Shown here: positions 7,365-16,997 of the stretch, piece after piece | Layout: every line of letters starts with the position of its first letter | Position numbering within the stretch: the first letter of the stretch is position 1 | Source of the DNA: Candidatus Latescibacterota bacterium | GTDB taxonomy: Bacteria > Latescibacterota > UBA2968 > GCA-2709665 | DNA: 64,000 bases | Direction: 5' to 3' | Assembly (NCBI GenBank): GCA_965219995.1 | Contig: CBDCOX010000002.1 | Span: forward strand, 96,001 to 160,000 | The notes under the pieces: generated by a model | Database searches by the model: none | What the model was told of the DNA's origin: nothing | What the model saw: the letters and a program-made list of their open reading frames with translations, nothing else | Translations under genes and position numbers: made by a program

Positions 7365-7525
7365 CCGTGAGACGGGAGACGTTAGACGTGAGATGATGTA
7401 AGTGCCTGTTCGGTATCATCTCTTGCCGGAGGCATAAAGGTATAACCAATCGGGCAAGGACGTCTTCTCCCGTCTCCCGTCTCCCGTCTCACCGCTTTCA
7501 GTTCTTCCTTCTTCCTTCTTCCTTC
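7365..7525. repeat. Single copy of repeat family A hairpin with flanking heptamer runs
   Basis: TGCCTGTTCGGTATCATCTCTTGCCGGAGGCATAAAGG...AATCGGGCAAGGA; GTGAGAC heptamers before, CGTCTCC and TTCTTCC heptamers after. Confidence 0.85.
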
Positions 7526-7553: not shown

Positions 7554-10500
7554 CTACCGTGACTTCGCAGGGTCCGTAGACTTGAGTAGATTCCCTGCAA
7601 ACCCCCTCAGAAAATGCCTCAGGTCATCCAGATAGGTATAGAACAGCGGCACCACGAAGAGCGTCAGGACCGTGGACGACAAGAGGCCGCCGATCATCGT
7701 GATGCCCAGCGGGGCGTAGGGCGTGCCGAGCATGGTCGCGGATCCCGCGGCCATCGGGAACAGTCCGAAGACCGTTGTAAAGGTGGTCATCAGAATCGGC
7801 CGGAACCGGTTGTATCCGGCCTCCTCGATCGCCTCTGAGCGGCTCATACCGCTCCCCCTCAACCGATTGATCATATCCACCAGCACGATCGCGTTGTTCA
7901 CGACCACGCCGATGAGCAGAATGATACCCATCTGGGCCATCTTCCCCATGACGGTGTTCGTCAGGAACAGACTCCAGTACACGCCCAGAAACGCGAAGGG
8001 GATCGACAACAGGACCGCGAACGGAAGCACGAAGGACTCGAACAGCACGCCCATCAGCAGGAAGACGCAGGTAATCGCCATCACGATTGCGAACGACATC
8101 GTATCGTCGGACTCCTGGAATCTGGAATAGGTCTCTCCCTTGTTCCAGGAATACCCCCGCGGCATGGCGAATCCCACCATCGCGCGGTCGATCTGTTCCC
8201 ACAACCCTTTCAGGTCTTCCTGCGTTGTAAATGCCCGCACCCGCATCCGCATTTTTCCGTCCTCGCGCCGAATATTGCCGCTGCCTTCCGTAATGTTGAA
8301 CGAGGCGAATGCCGAGAGGGGAATCTGGGTACCGGTATTCGAGCGAAACGGGAATTTCTTGAGTTGTGCCAGCGTCTGGCGATCGTCTTCGTCCATGAAC
8401 AGCCGGACTGAAATCATCCGGTCGTCGTCGTGATACGGCGCCAGGTTGACCCCGCGCAACTGGTAGGAAATGCTGCGGCCCACGGCCCGGGCGGAAATCC
8501 CGTACGCGTGCGCCTGTTCCTTGTTGACGAGCACCTGCACTTCCTTTTCCGCGTATTCCAGGTCGCTGTCCACGCTGACGACGTCCGGAATCGCCTCCAC
8601 CCGCTGTCGCACGGCCTCCGACAGCCGCCCCAGCAGATCGATGTCGTCTCCGTAGAGATAAACCGAGACTCCCGGCTCACTGCGCCACCGCGTCTGAACC
8701 ATCACCCGCACACCGACGAATTTCGGTATGTGTTTCTTGACGTCCTCGATTACCTCCGCCCGGGTCATCTGCCCCTTGACGGGAAGACCGGCTTTCTTTC
8801 GAACGCTCTTGTAAAACTGGTACCACCAGTCCCTGTTCGGCTCTTCTTTCAGATACACCCGGATAAAACCCCGGATAAGACTGCTCTGTCGCCAGTAACC
8901 CAGCCGCACCGTTTCTATCCGGTAGGCGTCCCGTTTGCTGTCCAGGAAATCCTCGATCTGGGTTGCGACACGTTCCATCTCCGCACGTTTGAAAAAGGGC
9001 GGGGCATTGAATCGAATGAAAAATTCGTTGTTTACCCGGGCGCGACCGGTGGTCTTCTTGACGTTCGAAACCGGATAGAAAACCGAAACAAACAGGATGA
9101 TGAAGATCAGGGAAGCATCACGCCGGTGATTCAGAATCCACCGAAGGCCTCCTTGGTATTTCCGCCGCATCCACCGGACCGACCCCGGATCCTTCCTTGC
9201 GGCGTGCCTGCCGAGAAGCTTCGCCGCAAGGGGGATGAAGATCAGCGCCACGAAGAGAGACCCCAACAGCGACACGACCACCGGAATACCGACCCTGGTG
9301 AGTTCGAACGTCAGCCCCATGTCTCCCGTCATAAACATCAACGGCAGGAAGACCACCACCGTGGTCAGCGTCGCCATCGATATGGCCATGCCCACCTCGC
9401 TGGCGCCGGTAACGGACGCCTTGTGCGCATCCATTCCCTTCGCCCGCATCCGATAGATGTTCTCCACGATCACGATCGCGTTATCCACCACCATTCCCAT
9501 CCCCACCATCAGGCCCATCATGGTCAGCAGATTCAACGACCAGTCCAGAAAATAGAGCACGGAAATCGTCATCATGATGCACAGTGGAATCGACAGGGTA
9601 ATCAGGGCCGTCATCCGCACGGCGCGGAGGAAATACAGCAGGATCAGGGAGGCGAACAGGGCGCCCCAGATCGCGGTCGTTCGAATATTGTCTATCGAAT
9701 CCCGCACCGCCCGGCCCTGATCCCACAAAACGTTGAACTGTGCTCCGGTCTCCTGGGCGATCCGATCCAGTTCCTCCTTCACCCGGACCGATACGTCCAC
9801 GACGTTGGCGCTCGATTCCTTGTACACGTCGAGCCCGACGGCTTCCTTGCCATTGATTCGCCAGGATCCCAGGCGCGGCGGTATTCCGAACAGCACGCCT
9901 CCCACGTCGGATACGGTGACGGGATCCAGGCCGTTCGACCGCCTGATGGGTATCCGGCGGATCTCGTCCATGTCCCGATACCGCGCCAGGGAGCGGATGA
10001 AGTATTTCTTGCCGCCCTCCTGCAGGTGACCGCCGGCCAGCGCGAAGTTCTCCCCCTGCAGCGCCTGTACCACGTCGGCGGGTCGGACGCCCAGCGAACG
10101 CATGCGCTCCTGCAGCACAACGACCGTGATCTCCTTCCTGAATCTCCCCCAGAAAGAGATCTTCGCCACCCCGTCGATCCGCTCCAGACGCCGTTGAACC
10201 CTGTCTTCAATGAAGGACTGGATATCCTCAAGTCCCTCGGGCGGGGCCACCCCCATCCATATAATTTCCTGGTCGGTCTCCTCGTTATACTTCCACACAC
10301 CCGTTCTCTCGCGCTTCTCGGGGGGCAATTCCAGTTTCAGCCGGTCAAACCGGTCCATGACCTGGTTGTAGGCCAGGGACATGTCGGTCTCCGGACGAAA
10401 CCTCAGACCGGCATTCGCCCAGTCCTTGCCGGCCCACGTTCGCATTGACTCGAGGTTTTTCACCGTTCCGAGATAGGTCTCGAACAGCCTGCAAATTTCC

Positions 10501-10700
10501 TGGTCGTTCTCCTTGGGCGACGTATCCCGGCTGTCCACCCACACCCACAACCGTTTCCACTCCCACCCGGACGGAAAGGCCTGAAGGCGTATCTTCGCAT
10601 AAGACACGCAACCGATCACCAGCAGCGCCACGAGGCACATGGCCACCGTGACCGGCCGCGAAATGGAAATCCGCGGCAAGAGCGCTTGTCGGTCTTTCAC
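7554..10700 (-). CDS. RND efflux transporter permease (AcrB/MdtB-like)
   Basis: 1048 aa; SISRPVTV, GMVVDNAIVIVENI, GVVVNNAIVLVD, RFRPILMT. Confidence 0.92.
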   Translation of the reverse strand: MKDRQALLPRISISRPVTVAMCLVALLVIGCVSYAKIRLQAFPSGWEWKRLWVWVDSRDTSPKENDQEICRLFETYLGTVKNLESMRTWAGKDWANAGLRFRPETDMSLAYNQVMDRFDRLKLELPPEKRERTGVWKYNEETDQEIIWMGVAPPEGLEDIQSFIEDRVQRRLERIDGVAKISFWGRFRKEITVVVLQERMRSLGVRPADVVQALQGENFALAGGHLQEGGKKYFIRSLARYRDMDEIRRIPIRRSNGLDPVTVSDVGGVLFGIPPRLGSWRINGKEAVGLDVYKESSANVVDVSVRVKEELDRIAQETGAQFNVLWDQGRAVRDSIDNIRTTAIWGALFASLILLYFLRAVRMTALITLSIPLCIMMTISVLYFLDWSLNLLTMMGLMVGMGMVVDNAIVIVENIYRMRAKGMDAHKASVTGASEVGMAISMATLTTVVVFLPLMFMTGDMGLTFELTRVGIPVVVSLLGSLFVALIFIPLAAKLLGRHAARKDPGSVRWMRRKYQGGLRWILNHRRDASLIFIILFVSVFYPVSNVKKTTGRARVNNEFFIRFNAPPFFKRAEMERVATQIEDFLDSKRDAYRIETVRLGYWRQSSLIRGFIRVYLKEEPNRDWWYQFYKSVRKKAGLPVKGQMTRAEVIEDVKKHIPKFVGVRVMVQTRWRSEPGVSVYLYGDDIDLLGRLSEAVRQRVEAIPDVVSVDSDLEYAEKEVQVLVNKEQAHAYGISARAVGRSISYQLRGVNLAPYHDDDRMISVRLFMDEDDRQTLAQLKKFPFRSNTGTQIPLSAFASFNITEGSGNIRREDGKMRMRVRAFTTQEDLKGLWEQIDRAMVGFAMPRGYSWNKGETYSRFQESDDTMSFAIVMAITCVFLLMGVLFESFVLPFAVLLSIPFAFLGVYWSLFLTNTVMGKMAQMGIILLIGVVVNNAIVLVDMINRLRGSGMSRSEAIEEAGYNRFRPILMTTFTTVFGLFPMAAGSATMLGTPYAPLGITMIGGLLSSTVLTLFVVPLFYTYLDDLRHFLRGFAGNLLKSTDPAKSR

Positions 10701-11269: not shown

Positions 11270-11595
11270 GGGAGACGTAGACGGGAGATGATGTGAATGC
11301 CTGTTCGGTATCATCTCTTGCCGTAGGCATAGTGGAAGAACCAATCGAGCAAAGATGTCATCTACCGTCTCCCGTCTTGCGTCTCACCGGTCTTCTTGCC
11401 CCGTGCAGTTTCATTTCTTGCCATCGGCATAAAGGAAGAACCATTCGAGCAAGGATGTCATCTACCGTCTCCCGTCTTGCGTCTCACCGGTTTTCTTGCC
11501 CCGTGCAGTTTCATTTCTCGCCGGAGGCTTAAAGGTAGAACCAATGGGGCAAGGATGTCATCTACCGTCTCCCGTCTCACGTCTCACGTCTCCCC
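11270..11595. repeat. Tandem array of 3 hairpin units with exact 100-bp period (repeat family A)
   Basis: GCC-NNN-GGC at 11320, 11420, 11520; each followed by GCAA(G/A)GATGTCATCTACCGTCTCCCGTCT. Confidence 0.9.
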
Positions 11596-11614
11596 GCTCT
11601 TCGATTGTTTCCCC

Positions 11615-11643
11615 TTGACAGATGATGGTCAAAATCCTATGTT
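11615..11643 (+). promoter_or_regulatory. Sigma70 promoter of the T-box/pheST operon
   Basis: TTGACA (11615-20), 17-nt spacer, TATGTT (11638-43), immediately before the T-box leader. Confidence 0.8.
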
Positions 11644-11650
11644 CTCACCC

Positions 11651-11965
11651 AAAGCGATGACGGAGGAAAGTAAGCCGTCCCCAACCGGAAAGGGAGGGGG
11701 CGCCCCGGACTGAAAGCGCCCTCGCGGCATGAACGGCCGAAGTTCCCTCTCGAGCTGCAACGCTGAATGCGATTGCCGGCCGCAGTGCAGTATGGAAAAA
11801 AGGAAACCGGCAACCGTTACTAGGCGGCGCCGGTGTCTCCCGCCGACAACAGGGAGGGGCGGTAACGGCCGCCTGTCAAGCGGCGCCTGAAGGGCGCAAA
11901 TAGGGTGGTACCGCGGAAGACGTCACGTCCTTTCGTCCCTATGGGGATGAAAGGTCTTTTTTTTT
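11651..11965 (+). promoter_or_regulatory. Transcriptional T-box riboswitch, Phe specifier (UUC)
   Basis: GA motif GCGATGA...AAGTAAG, AGGGA box, GACTGAAAG loop, specifier GAAG-TTC (11743-45), T-box AAATAGGGTGGTACCGCG (11898-915), terminator CCTTTCGTCCC/GGGATGAAAGG + T run. Confidence 0.92.
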
Positions 11966-12030
11966 CGGCCCGGACGTCCGGCCGCGCCGTCTTCCGCCAA
12001 TCCGGAGCACCCACTCCAGGGAGCATTATC

Positions 12031-13617
12031 GTGGATCAATCGACCGACCTGTCGTCCCTTCACGCCCTCGAGATCAAGACGCTGCGCGCGTTCGAAACCT
12101 GCGAGGAACACGAGCTGACCGACGCCGCCCTGCCCGAAGCCGCGGGCATCGGTCCCGGACAGGTCCGGCGCGCCGTCGAATGGCTGCGTTCCAAGGGTCT
12201 CCTGGACGTCGCCGGTGAAGCAACGGTCTCGACCGTCAGCCTCACGGAATCGGGGGTCGCCCTGGCCGGCATCGGTGCGACGCCGGAGGCCGCGCTTTTG
12301 CTGCGCGCCCGGGAAGAGCCCGCACCCACGTTGAAGCACCTGCAGGCGGATACCCGCTTCGACCGCGGAGAATGGGGCAGCGCATACGGCGGGCTGAAGG
12401 CCGAAGGCACAATCAGGCAGGACGGCGGCGCCATCCGCATCGCCGATCCCGACAGAGCCGCCTTCTATACCGAAAGGCTCGTGCCGGGGCTGTTCGGGCG
12501 CTTTCGGGAGGCCGGCGACGATGCCGCGCTGAATCTCGACGACTTTACCGAAGAGATTCAGTCCTATATCCGGGAACGAACGAGCAAACGCGGCAAGGGC
12601 AAGGCCGCCATCCGAGTGGACGAACGCCTGGAACGCACGTACAGGCTTACGCCGGCCGGTAGGGGTACGCTGGAGCGCATTCTGGAATCCGGGCTGACGG
12701 GCGACGAGGTCTCCCGCCTCACGCCGGAGATGTTGCAGTCGGGCGACTGGAGAGACGTCTCGTTCCGGCGGTACGACATCAGCATCAAGCCCCCGCGTAT
12801 TCTCATCGGCCGCCTGCACCCGTACCGCGCCTATCTCGACGGTGTCCGGCGCAAACTGCTGTCTCTCGGGTTCGAGGAAATGAAGGGCCCGCTGGTGGAA
12901 ACCGAATTCTGGAATATGGATGCCCTGTTCATGCCGCAGTTTCACGCGGCACGAAATATCCATGACGCCTATTACGTCAAGGAACCCATCCGTTCGAAAG
13001 CGCCCGAAGAACCCTTCTTCTCCAATGTGGCCGCCGCCCACGCCGACGGCGGCGACACCGGCTCCCGCGGCTGGCGGTACGAATTCAGTCCGGCCCGCGC
13101 GCGCCGTCTCATCCTGCGCAGCCAGGGTACCGCGCTGTCGGGCCGTACGCTTGCTTCCGGACCGAACGTCCCGGGGAAGTATTTCGCGGTTGCGCGATGC
13201 TTCCGGTACGACGACGTCGACGCCACCCACGCTGCCGATTTCTTCCAGGTGGAGGGTATCGTCCTGGGCGAGGGCATCAATTTCCGGAGTCTGCTGGGCC
13301 TGCTGAAGCTGTTTGCGCTGGAGATCGCGCAGTCGGACGAATGCCGGTTTTTGCCGGACTATTTCCCGTTCACCGAGCCCTCGGTCGAGCTCCAGGCCAG
13401 GCACCCGTCTCTGGGCTGGATCGAATTCGGCGGCGCCGGCCTGTTCCGGCCCGAACTCACGCGCCCGCTGGGCGTCGAGGTCCCGGTCATCGCATGGGGT
13501 CTGGGCATCGACCGGATGGCGATGGTAGCCCTGGATATAGACGACATCCGCGACCTGTTCAGCACGGACCTGGATCGGATCCGGAACGAAAGAGAAAACA
13601 GGCCAACGGCGACCTGA
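12031..13617 (+). CDS. pheS: Phenylalanine-tRNA ligase alpha subunit, archaeal/spirochaete type
   Basis: ~528 aa with long N-terminal extension; FWNMDALFMPQFHAAR, DATHAADFFQVEG, YFPFTEPSVE, AWGLGIDR. Confidence 0.93.
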   Translation: MDQSTDLSSLHALEIKTLRAFETCEEHELTDAALPEAAGIGPGQVRRAVEWLRSKGLLDVAGEATVSTVSLTESGVALAGIGATPEAALLLRAREEPAPTLKHLQADTRFDRGEWGSAYGGLKAEGTIRQDGGAIRIADPDRAAFYTERLVPGLFGRFREAGDDAALNLDDFTEEIQSYIRERTSKRGKGKAAIRVDERLERTYRLTPAGRGTLERILESGLTGDEVSRLTPEMLQSGDWRDVSFRRYDISIKPPRILIGRLHPYRAYLDGVRRKLLSLGFEEMKGPLVETEFWNMDALFMPQFHAARNIHDAYYVKEPIRSKAPEEPFFSNVAAAHADGGDTGSRGWRYEFSPARARRLILRSQGTALSGRTLASGPNVPGKYFAVARCFRYDDVDATHAADFFQVEGIVLGEGINFRSLLGLLKLFALEIAQSDECRFLPDYFPFTEPSVELQARHPSLGWIEFGGAGLFRPELTRPLGVEVPVIAWGLGIDRMAMVALDIDDIRDLFSTDLDRIRNERENRPTAT

Positions 13618-13672
13618 AGCGCCGGGAGCCGGAATTCGCGCGCATCCCGCGCGTATGCATCGAGGAGCACGC

Positions 13673-15358
13673 ATGCCCACCATCACCGTGATCAGGAAAG
13701 ACCTCGAACGGCTCGCGGGTCAGACCTACGACCTGCCCGAGCTCGAACGGGCCCTCGAGGCTGTCAAAGCCGAGGTCAAGGTCGAAGACGACGCCCTGTT
13801 GAAAATCCAGTTGAAGGATACCAATCGGCCGGATCTCTGGTCGTCGGAGGGCGTCGCCCGGTTGCTCAAGGGGCATCGCGAGGGCGTGCACGAACCCTAT
13901 CCGTTTTTCGAGGACCCGCCAGGGGAACTCGAACTGCGCGTCGACCCCGCGCTGGAAAGCCTCCGTCCCTACATCGCCGCCTTCGCCTGCGAAGGGATCT
14001 CGGTGGACGAAGCGGCCCTCGAGCAGCTCATCGAGGCTCAGGAAAAACTGGCGGAAGGCTACGGTCGCGGTCGAAGCGCCGTTGCCATCGGCATCTACGA
14101 CGCTACCGACGTCGCCTTTCCCGTCCGCTACGCCGCGGCCGATCCGGATGCGACCCGCTTTATCCCGCTGGGAATGGAGACCGGGCTGACGCTTCGGGAT
14201 ATCCTGAGCGAACACCCCACGGGCCGGACGTACGCGCACCTGCTGGAAGGCTTCAGCGCCTTTCCCCTCATCACCGACAGCCGGGGTGAGGTCCTCTCCA
14301 TGCCTCCCGTGATCAACAGCCGGAACCCGGGCGCGGTGGAGGTCGGCGATTCGTTTCTCTTCTGCGAGGCCACCGGAACCGAACTCGACGCCGTGCTGCT
14401 CTCCGTTGCCATCATGGCCGCCAACATGGCCGACCGGGGAGGCCGCATTCTGCCCGTAAACACCATCTATCCTTACAATACACCGCGCGGGCGCGAGATC
14501 CGGTGCCCTCTGGATATGACCGAAACCGTCGAAGTCGACCTGGACGACCTCCGGCGCGTGATCGGCGGCGCCATCGACAACGGAAGCATCGAACGCGCCC
14601 TGGCCGCCATGGGGTACCGGGACGTCGCGTTGGACCCGAATCGCGTCCGGGCCAGGCCGGCGCCATACCGGGACGATATCCTCCATCCCGTGGACCTCAT
14701 CGAAGACGTTATCGTGGCCGTGGGCTTCGACAACTTCGAACCCGAATTGCCGCACGATTTCACCGTCGGCAAGTCCGCGCCCGAGGAGGACCTTGCCGAC
14801 CGCATCCGCGGCCTGATGGTTGGATGCGGGTTCCAGGAAGTCTTTCTGCCGATTCTCTCGTCGCGCGCCGACCTGACGGAGGGCGTGCGCGACACCGGCG
14901 CGGGGATTGTCGAGATCTCCAACCCCATGTCCGAGAACTACAGCGCGGTTCGTAACGCCCTGTTGCCCGGGCTTCTGCGCGTGGAAGCCGCGAGCCGGAA
15001 AGCCCCGTATCCCCATCATATCTTCGAAGTGGGCGAGGTCTGCGTCATCGCGCGGGACGACCTCTACGGCACCCGTACCGAAATCTGCCTGGCTGCGCTG
15101 GAGGCCCACGCCGATGCCAATCTCTCGGGGATCCAGAGCCATCTCGAAGCCATCGCCTACTACCTCGGATTCGACTATCGTCTCACGCCGTCCGAGCACC
15201 CCACGTTTCTGCCCGGGCGGGCGGGCGAAATCCGGTTGGACGGGAATCGCTTCGGCATCATCGGCGAGATCCATCCCGAGGTCCTGGAGAACCGGGGCAT
15301 ATCCGTGCCCGTAAGCGCGTTCGAGGTCAACATCGATATCGCCGGAACGCAATCGTAA
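13673..15358 (+). CDS. pheT: Phenylalanine-tRNA ligase beta subunit, short archaeal/spirochaete type
   Basis: 561 aa; MPTITV, DTNRPDLWSSEG, MPPVINS, RDDILHPVDLIED; lacks the bacterial B2 and B8 domains. Confidence 0.93.
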   Translation: MPTITVIRKDLERLAGQTYDLPELERALEAVKAEVKVEDDALLKIQLKDTNRPDLWSSEGVARLLKGHREGVHEPYPFFEDPPGELELRVDPALESLRPYIAAFACEGISVDEAALEQLIEAQEKLAEGYGRGRSAVAIGIYDATDVAFPVRYAAADPDATRFIPLGMETGLTLRDILSEHPTGRTYAHLLEGFSAFPLITDSRGEVLSMPPVINSRNPGAVEVGDSFLFCEATGTELDAVLLSVAIMAANMADRGGRILPVNTIYPYNTPRGREIRCPLDMTETVEVDLDDLRRVIGGAIDNGSIERALAAMGYRDVALDPNRVRARPAPYRDDILHPVDLIEDVIVAVGFDNFEPELPHDFTVGKSAPEEDLADRIRGLMVGCGFQEVFLPILSSRADLTEGVRDTGAGIVEISNPMSENYSAVRNALLPGLLRVEAASRKAPYPHHIFEVGEVCVIARDDLYGTRTEICLAALEAHADANLSGIQSHLEAIAYYLGFDYRLTPSEHPTFLPGRAGEIRLDGNRFGIIGEIHPEVLENRGISVPVSAFEVNIDIAGTQS

Positions 15359-16909: not shown

Positions 16910-16997
16910 TGGTGCCGAAGGGGGGATTCGAACCCCCACGAGCACAAGGCTCACTGCGCCCTGAACGCAGCGCGTCTACCAGTTCCACCACTTCGGC
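16910..16997 (-). tRNA. tRNA-Leu(CAG)
   Basis: GCCGAAGTGGTGGAACTGGTAGAC...CTGCG TT CAG GG CGCAG, long variable arm, GGTTCGAATCC, encoded CCA. Confidence 0.97.

Follow-up and report, generated by a model that had tools for sequence, protein, structure and literature searches.

In a 64,000-nucleotide stretch of a Candidatus Latescibacterota genome (assembly GCA_965219995.1, contig CBDCOX010000002.1, positions 96,001 to 160,000; hereafter the window), the genes for the two subunits of phenylalanyl-tRNA synthetase (PheRS), pheS and pheT, are preceded by a T-box leader RNA. Our analysis suggests that this leader is very probably a working class-I (i.e., transcription-terminating) T-box, specific for tRNA-Phe, which controls pheST, and that this operon specifies the only PheRS of the cell, an enzyme of the archaeal/eukaryotic type. 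The mechanism is canonical; the host lineage and the class of target gene are new, the arrangement is conserved across one order, and partial precedents exist. A preliminary description of this DNA had listed a promoter, a T-box, a UUC specifier, an antiterminator, a terminator, a pheS of 528 aa and a pheT of 561 aa, and each of these elements lies at or near the place where it had put them (Table 1).

The covariance model of the T-box family (RF00230), for which the Rfam gathering score is 93 bits, matched the leader over its full length with 69.8 bits and an E value of 5.7e-15. Its alignment recovered the Stem I motifs GAUGA...CGAGC, AAAGUA and GAA, a specifier loop in the register GAA-G-UUC-C, and the AAAUAGGGUGGUACCGCGG box among the features of the family, while handling the module at 11837-11874 as an insertion. 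Within the antiterminator, the UGGU of the bulge (11906-11909) is predicted to pair with the ACCA-3′ end of tRNA-Phe. The 3′ strand of this element (UUCGUCCCU) doubles as the 5′ strand of the terminator, with segment 11929-11940 common to both, and of these two overlapping folds the terminator has the lower energy (-18.8 kcal/mol vs -15.1 kcal/mol for the antiterminator folded alone). The terminator fold has a z-score of -5.16, and 0 of 200 shuffled sequences were equally stable. Upstream, the promoter is by itself weak evidence because similar numbers of sites arise in shuffled sequence (2 in the scanned 4.5 kb vs 1.0 ± 0.9 in shuffles); CTTGAC at the -35 position is kept in those orthologous leaders that are long enough to include it.

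The leader travels with its gene. It was found 5′ of pheS in 8/8 related loci of the species-representative genome set (66-106 bits, three above the cut-off), and orthologous leaders score up to 111 bits, the best of them (97-111 bits) standing before the same gene. Among 38 loci gathered in two overlapping fetches, with the window itself counted (L001), 37 have pheS after the T-box, and the remaining one is interrupted by a contig end. UUC is present in all 38 loci and unchanged in 20/20 aligned leaders. The bases that flank it vary, the preceding G being replaced by U in L005 and the following C by A in L008 and L100. A specifier GUU (Val), read in the register GAA-GUU-C, was considered and excluded: L005 has U for that G yet keeps UUC, an A follows UUC in L008, L099 and L100, and UUC falls in the codon columns of the covariance model.

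Covariation was assessed in the 20-leader alignment for a structure made of Stem I, the extra hairpin, Stem III and the terminator. Changes on both sides affected 30 of 58 pairs, compared with 18.7 ± 2.1 in shuffled alignments (0/500 reached 30) and 10-15 when the partners were slid, and 88.1% of the cells were paired vs 41-49% with slid partners. RNAalifold independently reported compensatory changes at 23/51 pairs. The signal is distributed along the leader: helices 3-5 of Stem I show compensatory changes in 13/15 pairs, with 92-95% of cells paired; the GGGGCGG/CCGCCU hairpin (helix 8) does so in five of its seven pairs (98.6% paired); and the terminator (helix 10) is 100% paired in the 20 leaders, with G-C/G-U/A-U exchanges. 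The CUCCC/GGGAG hairpin (helix 7) is weaker, at 69.7% paired, and the antiterminator columns are nearly invariant, which makes covariation uninformative there. We dropped two elements as conserved helices on these grounds, namely, Stem II as drawn (50.7% paired) and the CUCCC/GGGAG hairpin.

The host provides a fitting ligand. Its genome holds 50 tRNA genes, including one tRNA-Phe (GAA), located outside the window (G000:C2:174134-174209), with an A73 discriminator and an encoded CCA; its anticodon is complementary to UUC and its ACCA end to UGGU. The leader elements, their conservation and covariation, and these codon/anticodon and bulge/acceptor matches jointly suggest a response to tRNA-Phe. 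Transcription would start a few bases 3′ of the -10 box ending at 11643, and Stem I would then offer UUC to the GAA anticodon. If the bound tRNA-Phe were uncharged, its free ACCA-3′ end would pair with the UGGU bulge (11906-11909) and stabilize the antiterminator (11902-11940), so that RNA polymerase would continue into pheS and pheT. With charged tRNA-Phe, the more stable terminator (11929-11965) would form and transcription would end 66 nt before pheS. Because such a switch reads only the host tRNA, the T-box would be indifferent to the kind of synthetase that it controls. As to the enzyme's own reading of this tRNA, position 20 of the sole tRNA-Phe is U, the bacterial state, whereas archaeal/eukaryotic PheRS use G20 as an identity element. 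The archaeal-type PheRS may thus have adapted to a bacterial-style tRNA-Phe.

Expression data come from assembled metatranscriptomes of close relatives, whose contigs span the leader as well as pheS and pheT; gaps in this coverage of the operon carry no information. Two RNA contigs from two runs of one study (11665-12063 and 11665-12347) extend across the terminator into pheS. These bridging contigs are weak evidence, because contigs do not prove one transcript and RNA libraries can hold DNA; being available only as assemblies, they agree with read-through while revealing neither ends nor levels and showing no regulation. That both begin at 11665, in two runs of the same study, hints at best weakly at a 5′ end.

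Both subunits are, by their family-model scores, of the archaeal/eukaryotic type and form the only PheRS of the genome, as the preliminary description had proposed for the enzyme type. PheS carries the FWNMDALF, DATH and AWGLG motifs and matches NF003210 (PRK04172) with 516.6 bits (cut-off 350) over residues 9-521; its class II core (PF01409, 264.8 bits, residues 248-518) is preceded by an N-terminal extension. Among its sequence relatives in the PDB, five alpha chains (full-length or core) score 176-212 bits, with human cytosolic PheRS (3l4g) at 209, against ~112 bits for chains from Escherichia coli and Thermus. Similarly, PheT reaches 472.4 bits with TIGR00471 (pheT_arch; cut-off 282.65) and only 116.5 bits with TIGR00472 (pheT_bact), which is under the cut-off of 402.65 and restricted to model positions 405-689. 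A longer pheT open reading frame from 13655 probably does not mark the true start, because the TIGR00471 alignment begins at its residue 7. Bacterial-type pheT is absent from the genome, which is 98.6% complete: pheT_bact matched nothing but this pheT (110 bits) and, at another place, a fragment scoring 27.6 bits. Since, in addition, the genome yields a single PheS match (E ≤ 1e-20), the operon encodes the housekeeping enzyme.

Table 1. Features of the pheST locus and its surroundings in the window.
Feature	Position	Strand	Remarks
Sigma-70-type promoter (TTGACA, 17-nt spacer, TATGTT)	11615-11643 (-35, 11615-11620; -10, 11638-11643)	+	10/12 positions match; putative function
T-box leader RNA, 296 nt	11648-11943	+	RF00230, model positions 1-219 of 219
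Stem I: basal GA (K-turn-like) motif, AGUA/GAA S-turn in specifier loop, distal stem	11654-11755	+	Covariance-model alignment
Specifier codon UUC (Phe)	11743-11745	+	Covariance-model register
Lineage-specific module between Stem II and Stem III	11837-11874	+	Possible CUCCC/GGGAG hairpin, then covarying GGGGCGG/CCGCCU hairpin
T-box core AGGGUGGUACCGCGG	11902-11916	+	
Antiterminator	11902-11940	+	AGGG/CCCU and GCGGA/UUCGU helices flanking 7-nt bulge UGGUACC (11906-11912)
Intrinsic terminator	11929-11965	+	11-bp stem 11929-11954, then U-run 11957-11965 (nine U)
pheS, PheRS alpha, archaeal/eukaryotic type, 528 aa	12031-13617	+	GTG start; GGGAG 12019-12023, 7 nt upstream
pheT, PheRS beta, archaeal type, 561 aa	13673-15358	+	ATG start; GAGGAG 6 nt upstream
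Resistance-nodulation-division pump, AcrB family	7554-10700	-	Operon neighbor
Extracytoplasmic function-type sigma factor fused to tetratricopeptide repeats, 475 aa	15402-16829	-	Operon neighbor
tRNA-Leu(CAG)	16910-16997	-	Operon neighbor

The closest PheS genes are 85-87% identical and lie in records with the title Gemmatimonadota bacterium; those in Candidatus Latescibacterota records are 66-74% identical. To place the locus within its phylum, we surveyed 151 sampled genomes, of which the 49 of families f1 and f2 represent the window's order. All 19 genomes of f1, including the window's own, have the T-box and a full-length archaeal-type PheS (in three pieces in G130). Family f2 (30 genomes) has the T-box in 21 and the full-length PheS in 27, bringing the order to 40/49 and 46/49, respectively. 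Neither trait reaches further as a Phe unit: full-length archaeal-type PheS is missing from the 64 genomes of f3 and the 38 genomes of eleven other families, where the only T-box is one before leuS in f3. PheS matches in these 102 genomes are either lacking or limited to the catalytic core at 36-44% identity, in frames of ~340-390 aa (bacterial type). Given this family-by-family distribution, both traits appear to have been in place at the stem of one order, with at least two later losses of the leader, in two genera. The leader survey proposed in the preliminary description thus found its subject across an order, and the restriction of the archaeal-type PheS to that order supports the horizontal acquisition suggested there.

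T-box genomes have exactly one match each. The exception is a metagenome-assembled genome (MAG) from the window's family, in which a second T-box, specific for Trp (L130, G133:C166:605-935), has a UGG specifier and a UGGC bulge and precedes trpE on a 2,015-base contig. With 8% contamination in this MAG and trpE T-boxes on record for Chloroflexi (PMC2494555), this second T-box may be there through misbinning. The f3 match (L082, G055:C1:305565-305808) scores 124.5 bits and has a CUC specifier, in a genome whose PheS is of the bacterial type. Overall, 17 of the 41 T-box matches in the phylum exceed the Rfam cut-off.

Several observations weigh against a working T-box. At 69.8 bits the window's leader lies below the 93-bit cut-off, and a default Rfam scan run at gathering scores therefore misses it; the covariance-model search that had been proposed beforehand as a check did find a match, although a subthreshold one. 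Parts of Stem I are off consensus, namely, the AG bulge AGGGAG and the distal loop CUGAAA; these elements of the distal platform, which in T-boxes docks the tRNA elbow, do align to the model, as AGGGAG vs AGAGA and GGACUGAAAG vs GGUGAAA. The single-sequence fold of Stem I is not better than that of shuffles (z +0.82) and is uninformative. The base 3′ of the specifier is usually a purine in T-boxes, but here it is C in most leaders and A in 2/20 of those aligned. Stem II drawn by hand (helix 6) is paired in only 50.7% of cells across the alignment, the region consisting of a variable insert followed by the covarying hairpin. Finally, the switch is dispensable, given that six f2 genomes retain the archaeal-type pheS but have no T-box in the 1 kb preceding it. 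In these leaderless loci (L112-L117, from G007, G013, G018, G028, G052 and G118), the upstream regions are short or unrelated and their contexts differ.

Such departures might be taken to mean that the leader is a decaying relic which no longer regulates. Scores of 65-84 bits, all below the cut-off, in 15/15 genomes of the window's genus (its own counted), the loss of the leader in the six f2 genomes and the noncanonical distal motifs of Stem I would fit decay. We nevertheless consider it very unlikely, since the specifier and the T-box core are invariant, the terminator is intact in 20/20 aligned leaders, and Stem I, Stem III and the terminator have accumulated compensatory changes across leaders whose PheS proteins are 64-88% identical.

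Two further alternatives seem together scarcely credible: that the T-box acts on translation by masking the ribosome-binding site, or that faulty assembly or binning joined a Gram-positive leader to pheS. Translational T-boxes do exist in Actinobacteria (PMC7778990). Here, however, a strong stem is followed by nine U, the GGGAG site lies 54 nt past the U-run and outside the switch, and the sequence does not permit an anti-sequestrator competing with the Shine-Dalgarno sequence. An artefact might be suspected in a MAG-like assembly with 7.6% estimated contamination, but the locus is embedded in a contig of 5.43 Mb, the same T-box-pheS arrangement recurs in several genomes of the genus that are single contigs, and a 4,053-base DNA contig from an independent sample spans 11594-15343. 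The genome encodes outer-membrane markers, BamA (516 bits) and, inside the window, the AcrB-type pump; the host is therefore diderm. A search with PF03331, the one family used, did not find LpxC in this 98.6%-complete genome, which may point to an outer membrane without classical lipid A.

Archaeal-type PheS is widespread beyond the phylum. The preliminary description had placed it, among bacteria, mainly in spirochaetes, a picture that is outdated: relatives of this PheS are encoded in at least 596 stretches of the species-representative genome set, of which the 80 best are mostly titled Nitrospirota, plus Eisenbacteria and others. We examined 72 archaeal-type pheS loci from other groups (L010-L081), which are mostly from Nitrospirota, with others from Eisenbacteria and one record each of Planctomycetes, Deltaproteobacteria and Gemmatimonadota. 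All were screened upstream of pheS for the core motif with at most one mismatch, and the nine positives (+ strand) and nine further loci were searched with the covariance model, the other 54 being covered by the motif only; neither approach identified a T-box (0 hits in the 18 loci run with the model). One of these regions, in a Nitrospirae MAG, has a group I intron-like match upstream of pheS (RF00028, 46.9 bits, cut-off 50; L078, 633-843, - strand).

T-boxes do occur in these bacteria at other genes. Five genomes of other phyla with archaeal-type pheS were searched whole, four of which have no T-box, while Nitrospira moscoviensis has one at leuA with a CUC specifier (L118; NZ_CP011801, G151:C1:804346-804581). 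More broadly, 30 of 101 Nitrospirota genomes contain exactly one T-box each, which is above the Rfam cut-off in 18 of the 30. Of 12 such loci fetched, 11 precede leuA and one is too short to judge, and all 12 have CUC. This is the layout published for Geobacter; among the papers listed in our literature search, none described T-boxes in Nitrospira.

We built a FastTree phylogeny of 142 PheS rows, comprising the window, 18 named loci and 123 of 150 unnamed representatives at 50% identity (27 were dropped by a length limit of 470-560 aa); it is midpoint rooted with local supports, and most rows are unnamed. Latescibacterota PheS proteins form one clade (support 100). It is nested, together with Nitrospirota, Eisenbacteria and others, in a larger clade of 25 rows (support 95), of which 16 are named, all of them as bacteria. 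The sole outgroup cluster named, P0131, lies nearby, and a homology search gave it Woesearchaeota/Nanoarchaeota names. This PheS type is thus archaeal in origin, but the tree suggests that the immediate source for the order was probably another bacterium.

We infer that the ancestor of one Latescibacterota order exchanged its bacterial PheRS for an archaeal-type enzyme circulating in Nitrospirota, Eisenbacteria and other bacteria, and that the Phe T-box was already joined to this enzyme by the time of the order's ancestor. The more interesting question is by which route the leader was united with the xenologous operon. Retention in place of an ancestral leader is unlikely, as the families of the phylum with bacterial-type pheS lack a Phe T-box; our search for one on the bacterial-type pheS of sister families found only the leuS T-box as the sole match among the 102 genomes.

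One possibility, which we regard as doubtful, is that T-box and archaeal-type pheST arrived as a single cassette from an unsampled donor, a scenario that concerns the origin and leaves the mechanism unchanged. It would explain why both traits share one order and are missing from all other families of the phylum, and why no local source of a leader is visible in a host otherwise devoid of T-boxes. It is weakened by the 0/72 archaeal-type pheS loci of other phyla with a T-box upstream (72 by motif, 18 by covariance model) and by the four such genomes searched whole without finding one; with N. moscoviensis having its T-box only at leuA, no donor was found. We give about even chances to a second route, in which the leader had an origin of its own and became attached to the newly acquired pheST afterwards, its source being either the leader of a bacterial-type pheS in another phylum or a diderm Leu (CUC) T-box. 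A change from CUC to UUC needs a single C-to-U substitution in the specifier, Leu leaders have the same UGGU bulge, and tRNA-Leu also has A73. Candidate sources exist in the leuS T-box with CUC in a genome of the same class and in the Nitrospirota T-boxes with CUC in 12/12 and leuA downstream in 11/12 loci, but an informal comparison revealed no specific similarity between Phe and Leu leaders beyond the family consensus.

Whichever route was taken, the Phe T-box of Latescibacterota has several known counterparts. In Bacillota, e.g., at Bacillus subtilis pheS, Phe-specific T-boxes precede bacterial-type pheST, and genomes hold dozens of T-boxes. Our leader resembles those in belonging to RF00230, in its UUC-type specifier, UGGN bulge and competing antiterminator and terminator, and in having a PheRS operon as its target. 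It differs in the archaeal/eukaryotic type of the enzyme, in a host from a diderm candidate phylum where a genome has a single T-box, and in its short Stem II, the covarying lineage-specific hairpin module before Stem III, and the C that usually follows the codon.

A precedent for the chimeric nature of the unit is lysK of Bacillus cereus/thuringiensis, in which a T-box is described on a horizontally acquired, Pyrococcus-like class I lysyl-tRNA synthetase; its authors state that archaea lack T-boxes and ask how T-box and enzyme were conjoined (PMC2916919). In both cases a T-box is joined to an acquired, archaeal-like synthetase. According to that account, however, the lysK product is a second, accessory enzyme in a T-box-rich Firmicute, whereas the operon analyzed here encodes the only PheRS in a phylum otherwise nearly without T-boxes. 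The chimeric unit envisaged in the preliminary description is therefore real, although less unprecedented than supposed.

T-boxes have been reported mainly from Firmicutes and also from Actinobacteria, Chloroflexi, Deinococcus-Thermus and, at leuA, two delta-proteobacteria (PMC3766115, PMC2494555). The latter, Geobacter sulfurreducens and Pelobacter carbinolicus, are described as having single leuA T-boxes (PMC2494555), and together with the 30 Nitrospirota genomes they qualify the idea that the host belongs to a kind of bacterium not known for T-boxes: it is indeed diderm, but diderms with one canonical T-box per genome exist. Their T-boxes control leucine biosynthesis (CUC) and no synthetase, and they are closer to the Rfam consensus than ours. 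In the literature searched we found no report joining T-box riboswitches to Latescibacterota, although supplementary survey tables may list some.

As for the enzyme, the textbook example of bacteria with archaeal PheRS is the spirochaetes (PMC3191353). In Spirochaeta, Borrelia and Treponema, as in Latescibacterota, one clade of the phylum has archaeal-type versions of both subunits in place of the bacterial enzyme, which its sister clades retain, and the proteins are of similar size (alpha, 513-528 aa; beta, 514-573 aa). The spirochaete enzymes are placed with those of Thermococcales in that work (PMC3191353), whereas the nearest named relatives here are other bacteria. Table 3 of PMC2494555 records no T-box in 6 spirochaete genomes.

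Positions 11311-11587, immediately before the pheST promoter, hold 2.8 tandem copies of a 100-bp repeat unit (89% matches). The same repeat is found at 1023-1277 and about 7416-7494 of the window. BLAST places its family at 136 dispersed sites of the 5.4-Mb genome (211 hits), with as many as 4 copies in an array. Many RNA and DNA contigs of other samples terminate or diverge inside it. Could it be an element like the repetitive extragenic palindromic sequences or the miniature inverted-repeat transposable elements?

The accepted view of how T-boxes work is unchanged by these findings. They do extend T-box regulation to an outer-membrane candidate phylum of the Fibrobacteres-Chlorobi-Bacteroidetes group and offer a natural case in which a bacterial tRNA-sensing switch would drive a sole, essential synthetase of the archaeal type. 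The locus illustrates how a regulatory RNA can be recombined with a displaced housekeeping gene after horizontal transfer, and the six leader-less genomes of the order provide natural with/without comparisons. Annotation based on thresholds would probably overlook the leader throughout the window's genus. On a more speculative note, T-boxes might be portable and enzyme-agnostic, so that in the ancestor of the order a lone Phe T-box became fused to xenologous pheST and made up the only T-box of the genome, either as a cassette or through the CUC change, as part of a spread of T-box-gene units among diderm phyla; we put this forward tentatively and do not think it the likelier outcome. If true, the single leuA and leuS T-boxes of Nitrospirota and the sister family, along with the Phe unit described here, would imply a spread between phyla far above that in the Firmicute-centered picture.

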